From NCBI RefSeq assembly GCF_030384885.1, contig NZ_CP128613.1: a DNA stretch of 64,000 bases. One strand, 5' to 3'. Each line of letters opens with the position of its first letter. Position 1 is the first letter of the stretch. Source of the stretch: Escherichia coli. Its GTDB lineage: Bacteria; Pseudomonadota; Gammaproteobacteria; Enterobacterales; Enterobacteriaceae. Of this stretch, positions 19,601 to 28,600 are shown in pieces. Position numbers: made by a program.

Positions 19601-22600
19601 AACACAGCAACTGGCGGATGATTAACTTGCCGGTTGGCCCGTTGGTGGACGGCAAACCGATTTATACGCTCTACATCGCGCTGTCTATCGATTTTCATCT
19701 TCATTACATTAATGATTTGATGAATAAACTTATTATGACCGCATCGATCATCAGCATCCTGATCGTCTTTATCATGCTGTTGGCGGTACATAAAGGCCAC
19801 GCGCCAATTCGCAGCGTCAGCCGTCAAATCCAGAACATTACCTCGAAAGATCTCGACGTTCGCCTTGACCCGCAGACCGTGCCGATTGAGCTGGAACAGC
19901 TGGTACTGTCGTTCAACCATATGATCGAGCGTATTGAGGATGTCTTTACCCGCCAGTCCAATTTCTCAGCGGATATCGCTCACGAAATTCGTACGCCAAT
20001 TACGAATCTCATTACGCAAACGGAAATCGCCCTCAGCCAGTCGCGCAGCCAGAAGGAGCTGGAAGATGTGCTCTACTCTAATCTCGAAGAGCTGACGCGA
20101 ATGGCGAAAATGGTCAGCGATATGCTGTTTCTCGCTCAGGCCGATAACAACCAGTTAATCCCCGAAAAGAAAATGCTCAACCTGGCGGATGAAGTTGGCA
20201 AAGTGTTCGATTTTTTCGAGGCGTTAGCGGAAGATCGCGGCGTAGCACTACGGTTTGTTGGCGACAAATGTCAGGTTGCGGGCGATCCGCTGATGCTGCG
20301 TCGGGCGCTAAGCAACCTGCTTTCTAACGCTCTGCGTTATACGCCGCCCGGAGAGGCAATTGTAGTGCGCTGCCAGACGGTCGATCACCAGGTGCAAGTT
20401 ACCGTCGAAAACCCCGGTACGCCCATTGCGCCCGAGCATTTACCGCGTTTGTTTGACCGTTTCTACCGCGTTGATCCTTCCCGCCAGCGAAAAGGTGAAG
20501 GTAGCGGCATTGGGCTGGCGATAGTGAAATCGATTGTTGTCGCGCATAAAGGCACGGTTGCAGTAACGTCAGATGCGCGGGGAACAAGGTTTATGATCAA
20601 ACTACCGGAGAAAGGTTAATTAGTTAGTTCAAACTCAAAGAGTGATGTATCGCCTTCTGTTATTATTTATCAATAAAACAGGGAAGACCTTATTGGTCGT
20701 CTGAAATCGACGGTTATTCATTTTCGGATATTTACGAGATATTTAGATATGCAATTTAATCAAATTCGTGTTTCTACCAATTGTAGAGCACAATGCTATT
20801 ACTAAATTTTCATCACTATAAAAGAATCGGCTATAATATAAAGCGCAGTCAGGCATCATTAATCTCTATATTATTCACACAATCTATTTATCAAGTGAAT
20901 TTGATAAATTCCTAATTTAAAATATTCACTATTAAGCCAGCGTCTAACGACGTTAAGATGGCAATGTGCAGATCATGTTATCAGGGTGGGGCGGTAGCGT
21001 ATATTCCTTATACAAACCATCATTCATTTCAATAATGTTTATTGAGTTATTTATTATTGTGAATAAAAAGACATTACAAATATTGGTTTGACTTTGCATA
21101 TCAGGTGTTTTTTTTGTTACTCGATGTAATATACGAGCCTGTCCTTAATAACATCGTGAACCCGTCAGTTGAGTTTGTGATTATTTTGTTGAGTCAACAG
21201 CCCCCTGTTTCTCTGAAGTAAAATCCCGGACAAAATCATCACATAACCATGACACTTTTCTGATATTCCCCGGTAACGCCTGAAGCCTGCCCGCTTACCT
21301 GAAGGCGCAGTCTGCGGGCAGGCACCGGATAAGTGAAGAGACTGACCAGTATGCCGGAGGCCACCGGCTGAAACAGGCCGGAAACACGCAGTATGACTAT
21401 GACGCCGCAGGCCGGATGGTCAGCCGCACCAGGCACCGTGACGGCTACCGCCCGGAAACAGAGCGGTTCCGGTGGGACAGCCGGGACCAGCTGACCGGGT
21501 ATTGCAGCGCACTGGGGGTGCAGTGGGAATACCGCCACGACGCCAGCGGCAGACGGACGGAAAAACGCTGCGACCGGAAGAAAATCCGTTTTACGTACCT
21601 GTGGGACGGCGACAGTATTGCGGAAATGCGGGAATACCGGGATGATAAACTGTACAGCGTACGGCACCTGGTGTTTAACGGCTTTGAGCTGCTGAGTCAG
21701 CAGTTCAGCCGGGAAAGGCAGCCGCATCCGTCCGTGGCCCCGCAGTGGGTGACGCGGACGAGCCATGCGGTAAGCGACCTGACAGGCCGCCCGGTGATGC
21801 TCTTTAACAGTGAAGGTAAAACCGTCTGGCGGCCGGGACAGACCAGCCTGTGGGGGCTGGCACTCAGCCTGCCCGCAGACACCGGCTACCCGGACCCGCG
21901 CGGGGAACTGGACCCGGAAGCCGACCCCGGCCTGCTGTATGCAGGACAGTGGCAGGATGCAGAATCCGGGCTGTGCTATAACCGGTTCCGGTACTACGAG
22001 CCGGAAACCGGGATGTACCTGGTGAGTGACCCCCTGGGGCTGGCCGGGGGGGAGCAGACTTACCGGTATGTGCCTAATCCATGTGGGTATGTTGATCCTT
22101 TGGGATTAGCAACGTGTCCCATAATCAGACAGCGGGTGCTTGCTAACCTCGAAGCCAGTCGGGCAGCAAGAGTTACATCAAATTTTGGTAAGCCTCTGGT
22201 TCAGGGAAATAAAACGATTGGCGATAAAGTAAGGGATATAATTGCCAAAGAGAGGGGAACCACTCTAATTGAACAAAATTATAGAGTGACAGGAGGATTA
22301 AGGCGTATTGACGTTGTTGATGGAGTAACGGGTATTGAATCTAAAGTCGGTCGAACAGGGATAACTGCCCGAGTACGGCAAGAGGTAGCCCGTGATATTA
22401 AGATTTTGAGAAGTGGGCAACTTGATCAAATTGAATGGGTGTTTACAAGAAGTCCAACTACAGGGAAGATTGGGCCAACTAAACCACTTGAAGATCTGTT
22501 AAATAAACATGGTATACCGATTATTTATCGATAAGGAGTGATAGTGTGAAACTCAAACCGATTGGTGATTTTTTAATTAATAGTGGGTTCGTGAAAAATA

Positions 22601-25600: not shown

Positions 25601-28600
25601 GACTGCTATTGCATCCAGCGCTGATTTTCCATGCCGGTATCCGTATGAATCATTCAGGAAATAACGCTCCACTAATGGTTCAAACGTTACCAGCACCGTC
25701 ATCTGCGCTATTCGATCGCTTACTGTCGGTATTCCTAAAAGTCTTTTGCTGCCATCCTTCTTCGGAATTTCCACCGCACGCACTGGCGGCGGCATCCAGC
25801 TTCCCGACGATAACCTGTTCCAGATTTTGTACAGATTTCCTTTCAGATCCCGCTCAAAATCTTTCAGCGTCTGGTTATCCACTCCGGCAGCTCCGGCATT
25901 CGCCTTTATCCGCCGGTACGCTTCCACCACATGCAATTTACTGACCTGAAACGGTTTTGTCTGTTCACACACAGCCTCCTCCTGCCTACAGTTGGGCTGT
26001 GATGCAGACTGCCCGACGCTGTCCCTTCGCTCCACGTTCATTACAAACGCTTCCTCACTACTACGAACAGCTCTGCCCCGGTTTCGCACATCGATACTCT
26101 CATACTCATAATTTCGGTTATTTGTATTTCTCTCTTGACATTGCGACGACCGGTTCCCGTAGTTCCTGCAAAGAGCCCGATACAGCGTCATGCCTGCTAT
26201 ACACCGGACATCATTCACGCAGCATTCGGAATTCACCCGTAAATTAATCCCGGCGGTATCACGAAACCTCCGGTTTTGATGTCACTTAGGACTAACGACG
26301 TTTCAACACAGGTTCGGGTTTACTCATCTCACTGTATCTCACATAGGATCAGATCTCGTCTGATCGTTCCCCCTGCGCTCACTACCATGGCTCTTTACCA
26401 CAGCAGCCGGGGTTGTTTGGGACCGACTTCCGACAGCAGATCCCGGTGGGCCTGCCACCATCTCTTCACAAGCTTATGCTTATTACATGCAAAACGTCCC
26501 GTTTTGCATCTTTGTGCCTACGGCACACCGTAATCTTTCCCTGTGTCATTAGTGCGTTCTCAACAATGCACAGTCTGGTTATCGGACAGATCAAGACGGA
26601 TGAGAAATCCAATGAAATTACAGCTATCCCTGAACTTCTTAACATGCTGGATATTAAAGGAAAAATCATCACAACTGATGCGATGGGTTGCCAGAAAGAT
26701 ATTGCAGAGAAGATACAAAAACAGGGCGGTGATTATTTATTCGCTGTAAAAGGAAATCAGGGGCGGCTTAATAAAGCCTTTGAGGAAAAATTTCCACTGA
26801 AAGAATTAAATAATCCAGAGCATGACAGTTACGCCATTAGTGAAAAGAGTCACGGCAGAGAAGAAATCCGTCTTCATATTGTTTGCGATGTCCCTGATGA
26901 ACTTATTGATTTCACGTTTGAATGGAAAGGTCTGAAGAAATTATGCGTGGCAGTCTCCTTTCGGTCAATAATAGCAGAACAAAAGAAAGAGCCAGAAATG
27001 ACGGTCAGATATTATATCAGTTCTGCTGATTTAACCGCAGAGAAGTTCGCCACAGCAATCCGAAACCACTGGCACGTGGAGAATAAGCTGCACTGGCGTC
27101 TGGACGTGGTAATGAATGAAGACGACTGCAAAATAAGAAGAGGAAATGCAGCAGAATTATTTTCAGGGATACGGCACATCGCTATTAATATTTTGACGAA
27201 TGATAAGGTATTCAAGGCAGGGTTAAGACGTAAGATGCGAAAAGCAGCCATGGACAGAAAGTATCTGGCGTCAGTCCTTGCGGGGAGCGGGCTTTCGTAA
27301 TCTTTCCCTGCCCTGCTCACCTCCTCCAGGCACTTCCACAACATGATGACCTGATCGGTTGCCGCCTATCCTCCTCACTATGACCTTCACCTCCGCGCTT
27401 TTGCCTACATCCTGCACAATCGGCAACTTTTATAACCAGTGTAAAAATAACGTGCCGCAATAATCCTACCTATTAATGATAAAAAGCTGTCACAATTCAT
27501 AAAAAACTTTAATATACGCCACCCTAAACATAACCAGCGTTAATGTAAGGTTTTTGTGTGGACTGGCTTCTTGATGTTTTTGCAACCTGGCTATATGGCT
27601 TAAAAGTAATCGCGATAACGTTAGCGGTCATCATGTTCATCAGCGGGCTGGACGATTTTTTTATTGATGTCGTCTACTGGGTACGCCGCATTAAACGCAA
27701 GTTGAGTGTTTATCGCCGCTACCCGCGAATGAGTTACCGCGAACTGTATAAACCAGATGAAAAACCGTTAGCGATTATGGTTCCGGCGTGGAATGAAACG
27801 GGCGTCATCGGCAATATGGCCGAGCTGGCGGCGACCACGCTCGACTATGAAAACTATCATATCTTTGTTGGCACCTACCCCAACGACCCCGATACTCAGC
27901 GTGATGTTGACGAAGTGTGCGCTCGCTTCCCAAACGTGCATAAGGTAGTCTGCGCGCGTCCTGGCCCCACCAGCAAAGCCGACTGCCTGAACAACGTGCT
28001 GGACGCCATCACCCAGTTTGAGCGTAGCGCCAATTTCGCTTTTGCTGGTTTTATTCTGCATGACGCCGAAGACGTAATTTCACCGATGGAATTGCGTCTG
28101 TTCAACTATCTGGTCGAGCGTAAAGATCTGATTCAGATCCCGGTATACCCATTCGAACGCGAATGGACGCACTTCACCAGCATGACTTACATTGATGAGT
28201 TTTCAGAACTGCATGGCAAAGATGTTCCGGTGCGTGAAGCCCTCGCCGGACAAGTGCCCAGCGCAGGCGTCGGTACTTGTTTCAGCCGCCGCGCCGTGAC
28301 CGCACTGTTAGCTGACGGTGACGGTATTGCTTTCGACGTGCAGAGTCTTACTGAAGATTACGACATTGGTTTCCGCCTGAAAGAAAAAGGTATGACGGAA
28401 ATTTTTGTCCGTTTTCCGGTGGTGGACGAAGCCAAAGAACGCGAGCAGCGTAAATTTTTACAGCACGCGCGGACGTCAAACATGATCTGCGTGCGCGAAT
28501 ATTTCCCCGATACCTTTTCGACGGCGGTTCGACAAAAGTCTCGCTGGATCATCGGCATTGTTTTCCAGGGCTTTAAAACCCATAAATGGACCTCCAGCCT

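Follow-up and report, generated by a model that had tools for sequence, protein, structure and literature searches.

The 6.8-kb segment that separates the genes cusS and nfrB in the 64,000-nucleotide stretch of Escherichia coli DNA analysed here (contig NZ_CP128613.1 of assembly GCF_030384885.1; hereafter "the window") is, with a probability that we put at about 85%, a decayed copy of the type VI secretion effector island that occupies Rhs position 4 (clade IV) in this species. As judged from the sequence comparison with the closest relative, what sets this strain apart is that DNA has recently been lost and not acquired: the toxin gene rhs has been reduced to a 3' stump, which is joined directly to the AT-rich leader of the island and is followed by an immunity gene, a scrap of Rhs core and two ISAs1 elements, one of which is interrupted by a group II intron (Table 1).

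Rhs position 4 between cusS and nfrB

The window has been compared with strain K-12 MG1655 by alignment and with 5,426 complete E. coli genomes by BLAST; all population counts that are given below refer to the latter set. In MG1655, nfrB and cusS are neighbours, with only 149 bp between them, as had been stated in the original prediction, i.e. the earlier reading of this DNA; the homology to K-12 breaks off at position 20606 of the window and picks up again at position 27403, and the intervening 6,796 bp (20607-27402) are extra DNA that K-12 does not carry. The separation of ~6.9 kb that had been predicted (20620-27557) corresponds to the limits from gene to gene and is close enough to this value. 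The insertion point is located within the final codons of cusS: the CusS protein of the window ends in LPEKG, followed by the stop codon, and that of K-12 ends in LPA.

A full-length homologue of the leader is found in 2,349 of the 5,426 genomes (~43% occupied), the clade IV core segment is carried by ~2,300 of them, and a K-12-like, empty junction occurs in 2,326. Because of these counts of occupied and empty sites, the locus is recognised as an old, common presence/absence polymorphism, with nothing about it that is peculiar to the strain. It has also been catalogued already: Jackson et al. 2009 (BMC Genomics 10:584, PMC2935791, Table 3, Fig. 5) list the nfrB/cusS site as Rhs "position 4", the sole clade IV locus of the eleven Rhs loci that are catalogued for E. 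coli, and have used it as an example of displaced C-terminal tips. The window agrees with their description in its site, in its clade IV core, in its displaced orphan tips with downstream immunity genes, and in the combination of a GC-rich core with AT-rich tips; in contrast to an intact position 4, it lacks vgrG, the DcrB-like gene and a full-length rhs, and only one orphan tip, a scrap of core and the insertion sequence (IS) elements are left.

The segment had been read in the original prediction as a horizontally acquired, strain-specific insertion between two adjacent core genes. Its absence from K-12, its mosaic composition (confirmed by the GC content of the individual parts, from 31% for the immunity gene to 63% for the Rhs core remnant) and the mobile elements that it contains agree with such a reading, and every component that had been listed (leader, Rhs core, toxin, immunity gene, H-rpt element and group II intron) could be verified. 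We nevertheless regard a strain-specific insertion as very unlikely: homologous leader, vgrG, rhs and ISAs1 DNA is located at the same site in ~43% of the complete genomes, and a genome with 99.97-100% identical flanks holds a larger version of the island, which indicates that DNA has been lost. Furthermore, flanking direct repeats, a check that had been proposed earlier, were searched for at the ends of the island and none were found, and neither an integrase gene nor a tRNA target is present at the island. The description of all flanking genes as core genome holds roughly for the cus and nfr genes, the cusS/nfrB junction query having matched 5,347 of the 5,426 genomes. Two features of the island go beyond the earlier description, namely the reduction of the Rhs gene to a 3' stump and the presence of two copies of ISAs1.

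A deletion of 8,949 bp relative to strain 2013C-4282

The closest genome is that of strain 2013C-4282 (NZ_CP027579.1). Positions 1-21297 of the window differ from it by 6 mismatches in 21,297 bp (99.97%), and positions 21296-34679 are 100% identical to it, but are placed 8.9 kb further along that genome; the identity of the flanks therefore lies between 99.97 and 100% over 34.6 kb, and because the flanks are near-identical, the loss is recent. The DNA that is absent from the window amounts to 8,949 bp and comprises vgrG, the DcrB-like gene, a 4.8-kb rhs gene, a downstream open reading frame (ORF) or immunity gene, and the initial ~1 kb of an orphan rhs core. In the alignment to 2013C-4282, the junction is ...GCCTGCCCGCT-TA-CCTGAAGGCGCAG..., with a microhomology of 2 nt; the left end of the deletion is located 75 bp upstream of the start codon of vgrG, and its right end falls within the Rhs core, at codon ~1200. 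This exact junction occurs in none of the 5,426 complete genomes, a set that does not include the source genome of the window.

The intact order, as it is seen in 2013C-4282 and XJ6.1, consists of cusS, the AT-rich leader, vgrG, the DcrB-like gene, a full-length PAAR-Rhs toxin (~1,600 aa), an immunity gene, one or more orphan modules (each of them a fragment of Rhs core with a toxin tip and an immunity gene), ISAs1 and nfrB. Thus, the vgrG and chaperone genes that precede rhs in both of these relatives are missing from the window, and so is a full-length Rhs with its PAAR/N-terminal region and complete YD-repeat shell, of whose ~1,600 codons ~266 are left.

The leader of the window is 99.9% identical to the region upstream of vgrG in 2013C-4282, and its part at 20856-21297 has 88% identity to the leader of rhsE in K-12 (locus 6). 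A scan of genome contigs for other species with a conserved 20-mer of the leader returned three unrelated chance matches only. A relic of the 3' end of cusS upstream of vgrG was also considered (16-mer TTATCACATTAYCCGC, 15/16 to K-12) and was rejected, since the same stretch is present in the leader of locus 6, with no cusS nearby.

It is conceivable that the missing 8.9 kb reflect an assembly artefact, i.e. a collapse across the Rhs cores of the locus, which are repeated at 95-97% identity and are as such a classic cause of collapsed assemblies. A collapse, however, should produce a join from core to core, whereas the join that is observed connects the unrelated leader to the core, with 2 nt shared between them; in addition, comparable junctions are found in the finished genomes NCCP12480 and TUM12355 and in ten genomes with another allele (the L017 type, see below). 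We thus consider an artefact highly improbable.

Table 1. Features of the island and of the flanking genes, in window coordinates. Empty cells: no value given.
Feature	Position	Strand	GC	Details
cusR	18498-19181	+		flanking gene
cusS	19171-20619	+	51-52% (with nfrB)	flanking gene
AT-rich leader	20607-21295	+	34%	non-coding cusS-vgrG region in intact relatives; contains the 3'-terminal four codons of cusS (EKG and stop)
Deletion junction	21296-21297	.		TA microhomology; leader joined to Rhs core codon ~1200
Rhs 3' remnant	21296-22534	+	63% (core remnant); 42% (toxin tip)	~266-270 codons of GC-rich clade IV core ending PNPCGYVDPLGL, then a 141-aa C-terminal toxin
DUF4304 protein (presumed immunity gene)	22546-23103	+	31%	185 aa; Pfam PF14137, E 2.7e-9
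Rhs core scrap	23120-23366	+	59%	247 bp, without tip, cut by the left end of ISAs1
ISAs1 (H-rpt/ISEc1-like) copy 1, left part	23367-24641	+	40-42%	left inverted repeat CAGGGAAAGATCACG (23367-23381)
ISAs1 copy 1, transposase ORF	23510-24643	+		377 aa; NF033564, E 3e-124; DDE_Tnp_1, DDE_Tnp_1_assoc
Group II intron, E.c.I9-like	24642-26528	-	49%	1,887 nt; starts GUGUG at 26528; D5/D6 at 24642-24717
ltrA	24719-26041	- (in intron)		reverse transcriptase (RT) and maturase, 440 aa; TIGR04416, E 7e-128; RVT_1 and GIIM
ISAs1 copy 1, last 15 nt	26529-26543	+		right inverted repeat CGTAATCTTTCCCTG; 5' exon of the intron on the minus strand; identical to 27296-27310
ISAs1 copy 2	26544-27310	+	40-42%	5'-truncated, 3' 767 bp; DDE_Tnp_1 match
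Right-hand spacer	27311-27402	.		92 bp
nfrB	27558-29795	+	51-52% (with cusS)	flanking gene
nfrA	29761-32754	+		flanking gene

The Rhs stump, its toxin tip and the immunity gene

The frame of the stump is open from position 21284, and its first ATG, at 21416, begins an ORF of 372 aa. The core part matches TIGR03696 (E 1.3e-18), and the PxxxxDPxGL motif that normally stands between the core and the variable tip is present as PNPCGYVDPLGL at 22073-22108, with DPLGL at 22094. The toxin tip that follows has no Pfam family at E <= 10, no NCBIfam family and no sequence match in the Protein Data Bank (PDB), and none of the curated Tox-REase models matched it. Its 24 homologues are mostly Rhs tips of Pectobacterium, Yersinia, Morganella, Proteus and Salmonella; in an alignment of 22 sequences, D68 is nearly invariant and E77, S78 and K79 are invariant, corresponding to a D...E-x-K signature. 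An AlphaFold model of the tip, built from the alignment of the homologues, reaches a predicted local distance difference test (pLDDT) score of 86 and contains the alpha-beta-beta-beta-alpha-beta core fold of the PD-(D/E)xK class; the best Foldseek matches of the model are BamHI and EndoMS, with weak E-values. On the basis of this predicted fold, we conclude that the tip is probably a PD-(D/E)xK toxin, i.e. one with a restriction-endonuclease fold. The tip resembles the known polymorphic toxins of this class (the Tox-REase families, TseT/TsiT of P. aeruginosa and CdiA-CT EC869) in its restriction-endonuclease-like fold, in the D...E-x-K residues, in its C-terminal place on a delivery protein and in the adjacent immunity gene.

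The ORF of the DUF4304 protein begins 11 nt past the stop codon of the toxin. A DUF4304 gene is also located directly 3' of the toxin homologues in Morganella morganii and Pectobacterium, the adjacency thus being conserved across three genera, and this recurrence supports the assignment of tip and DUF4304 protein as a toxin-immunity pair. The Rhs core scrap that follows is 88-92% identical to Rhs core segments of two comparison loci (L001 and L002), and is annotated as a partial pseudogene in the relatives.

Possible function of the remnant

Through the TA microhomology, the deletion has placed the leader directly before codon ~1200 of the first orphan core, and has taken away all that is needed to load and fire the toxin. 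The stump would then not be deliverable from this locus, having neither VgrG nor PAAR nor YD shell, and the immunity gene would be the part that is most likely still useful, as a protection against relatives in which this toxin is still fired; recombination could also draw on the stump as a reservoir tip.

Alternatively, the stump could still be an active weapon, if a promoter of the leader switched on a formerly silent orphan toxin-immunity pair, and if delivery were achieved through recombination with, or by, a VgrG/PAAR that is encoded elsewhere. The leader is now located 120 bp upstream of the intact 372-aa ORF, which contains the intact toxin and is followed by the intact immunity gene, and similar fusions of leader to core are seen in NCCP12480, in TUM12355 and in the rhsE of K-12. 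An analogue would be the activation of orphan Rhs in Salmonella, as was reportedly seen by Koskiniemi and co-workers in 2014. On the other hand, PAAR and the N-terminal region are missing from the fragment, as are the ~1,200 residues of the YD shell by which Rhs toxins are encapsulated and loaded, and the reading frame is not kept in most of the alleles with the same breakpoint, an argument against selection for a fusion protein; an active weapon would thus be improbable.

Apart from the repeated cores that have been considered above, several points weigh against the reading of the segment as a decayed effector island, or against parts of it. Another clade IV vgrG-rhs locus elsewhere in the genome may be able to use the stump. 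The stump has no obvious start upstream of the ATG at 21416, and a promoter scan of the leader gave consensus-level matches only, 11 against 6.5 ± 2.5 expected. The tip is presumably a DNase and the DUF4304 protein is presumed to be its cognate immunity protein, both roles being derived from the fold and the gene order. Lastly, the K-12-like empty site may be either ancestral or the product of a clean loss.

A recurrent breakpoint in the Rhs core

Within the clade IV core, the deletion terminates on its right side at codon 1200, directly after GGC and before TACCTGAAGG (...GGC before TACCTGAAGGCGCAG). At least seven distinct deletion alleles from unrelated genomes and metagenomes end at exactly this base, each of them with a different upstream partner: three leader positions, vgrG codon ~503, and rhs codons 398, ~880 and ~992. 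The sites of the shared right end are window 21296-21298, L003:10009, L006:8143, L016:754, L017:7154, L018:4770, L019:3999, L020 (minus strand) and L021:52, where the L numbers designate the loci compared. The search was aimed at this core position only, and the counts are thus not a measure of excess over other positions.

Among the complete genomes, a comparable fusion of leader to core occurs in NCCP12480 and TUM12355 only; the leaders of these two are 15-25% divergent from that of the window and are broken 8 and 25 nt further on at the left end, while the right breakpoint falls on the same base. The four other types of junction (vgrG ~503 and rhs 398, ~880 and ~992) came from a scan of metagenomes for the core sequence preceded by any base but the native C; the codon-398 allele (L017 type) is also the one that is carried by ten complete genomes. 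All of the junctions with the shared end show a TA, TAC or TACC microhomology, and most of them are out of frame. The truncated alleles are rare in absolute terms, as 100-nt segments to the left and right of the breakpoint have 3,012, 2,955 and 3,033 places in the complete genomes.

Three candidate explanations of the shared base have found no support. No native hairpin that could cause slippage is present at the breakpoint (z-scores from +0.8 to -1.0), and only the new junction of the window forms one: at 21270-21334, the leader GCCTGCCCGC/CCGGT and the core GCGGGCAGGC/ACCGG can pair in a hairpin of 15 bp (-17.6 kcal/mol, z -3.1), which may be due to chance. Selection for in-frame fusions was rejected, since the reading frame is not kept in the L017 and L019 alleles, and target pairing of the group II intron was rejected because the site, compared by eye, has no resemblance to the 5' exon of the intron.

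There may be a second cluster of breakpoints near codon 881 of rhs, where the same 2-3 nt form the left end of the deletion in one metagenome allele and the right end in another (L002 ~8908-8910; L016:421; L019:3998); several orphan cores begin ~40 nt upstream of this site (L002 8869). Furthermore, the position of the leader that follows ...CGCTTA is reused as a left end in the rhsE of K-12, i.e. at another locus (L010 3400-3410; L027 11860-11880; window 21290-21297), with a TTA microhomology.

These coincidences make it possible, although in our view rather doubtful, that the codon-1200 site is a sequence-specific hot spot of breakage or rejoining in the clade IV Rhs core. The published model invokes homologous recombination with circular intermediates; this model does not predict base-exact junctions of the microhomology type. 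Literature searches for rhs with microhomology, and for vgrG with cusS, found nothing relevant.

ISAs1 elements and the group II intron

Without the intron, copy 1 of ISAs1 measures 1,290 bp and is bounded by the terminal inverted repeats CAGGGAAAGATCACG and CGTAATCTTTCCCTG; the stop codon of its transposase is made by the junction with the intron, and the protein has 377 aa rather than 378. Copy 2 abuts the end of copy 1, at the ancestral junction beside nfrB; it matches 23890-24641 at 98.3% identity and, with its right flank included, the only ISAs1 of XJ6.1 at 98%. No matching flanks that would represent a target-site duplication were found, the left flank being ...CACTACC and the right flank TGTCATT (copy 2) or CCCTGCTC. 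The simplest route to this arrangement would be the insertion of an intron-bearing ISAs1 into an older, resident ISAs1, followed by recombination of the left parts; the lack of a target-site duplication is what would be expected if nested insertion and recombination had built the structure.

The ribozyme of the intron is recognised by two Rfam models, RF01999 (26342-26459; 93 bits, gathering score 36) and RF00029 (24642-24717; 63 bits, gathering score 40), and the RT/maturase is encoded in domain IV. The intron is 96% identical to the sole copy in ATCC 8739, and its E.c.I9 label rests on this identity together with Table 2 of Leclercq and Cordaux 2012 (PMC3522654), where E.c.I9 is listed in ATCC 8739 and where E.c.I2 and E.c.I9 are said to target Rhs IS. 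Like the E.c.I9/E.c.I2 introns that reside in ISEc1-type elements, it is inserted 15 nt from an end of ISAs1, after CAGGGAAAGAT(C/T)ACG. It differs from the two other copies that were examined, those of ATCC 8739 and FDAARGOS_1284, in its placement: in these, the intron has entered the left inverted repeat, 15 nt from the end and in sense orientation, whereas the window has it in the right inverted repeat, likewise at 15 nt, but on the opposite strand and antisense to the transposase (coordinates compared: window 26529-26543 and 24642; L008 2501-2516; L009). The 15-nt 5' exons of the three copies differ by one base (CAGGGAAAGATCACG versus CAGGGAAAGATTACG). At intron positions 266-271, CGUGAU is a candidate for exon-binding site 1 (EBS1): it can pair with AUCACG and, via one G-U, also with the AUUACG of the window site, which is then the one G-U of the putative pairing between intron-binding site 1 (IBS1) and EBS1; no EBS2 was identified in the intron. 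Because the ends of ISAs1 are symmetric, the element would thus offer the intron two sites. A literature search for H-rpt with group II introns returned nothing relevant.

Surroundings of the island

To the right of the island, envY (33828-34589) is followed directly by the tRNA-Arg(UCU) gene argU (34635-34711, minus strand) and by fimZ (region 33828-35586); the DLP12-type prophage (ompT, appY) that is present in K-12 and in 2013C-4282 is absent from the window. The identity to 2013C-4282 stops at 34679, within argU, and to the right of this gene (34000-46000) the best match among the complete genomes falls to 99.0% and belongs to other strains. The window thus appears to be a recombination mosaic, because its left 34.6 kb are 99.97-100% identical to 2013C-4282 and its right side is 99.0% identical to other strains.

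To the left, at ~4970-6460, a unit of ~500 bp that contains hokE (a type I toxin) is repeated three times in tandem; the same holds for 2013C-4282, where three hokE coding sequences are annotated. In K-12, the unit is present in one copy.

Related loci and significance

A similar arrangement is found at the RhsE locus of K-12 (the rhsE pseudogene, ydcD and the H-rpt element ydcC; Rhs position 6), where the homologous leader is fused to a 5'-truncated core that is followed by a small ORF and ISAs1/H-rpt. The rhsE of K-12 is a deletion of vgrG and of the 5' part of rhs at position 6, with its left end at the same position of the leader as that of the window. It is unlike the window in its locus (yncH-pptA), in its clade I core, which has no nucleotide similarity to that of the window, in the breakpoint of the core and in the lack of an intron.

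The island and the kinds of parts that compose it (orphan Rhs tips, immunity genes, H-rpt elements and IS-homing group II introns) have already been described, and the finding of an island between cusS and nfrB, as it was first stated, matters little. What is added here is a corrected reading, i.e. that of a widespread and ancient locus that is decaying in this strain, a precise anatomy that can be used for annotation, and the predicted PD-(D/E)xK fold for a toxin tip that has no Pfam family.

If the codon-1200 site were a genuine hot spot, a defined mechanism at the DNA level may drive the decay and reshaping of Rhs loci, unlike the model of homologous recombination; the candidates would be nicking or breakage at a specific site, strong topoisomerase action there, or a transposase end that is cryptic, followed by joining at microhomologies. 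Such a specific mechanism would explain the repeated disarming of type VI secretion effector loci with their immunity genes kept, and would bear on the origin of "immunity-only" islands.

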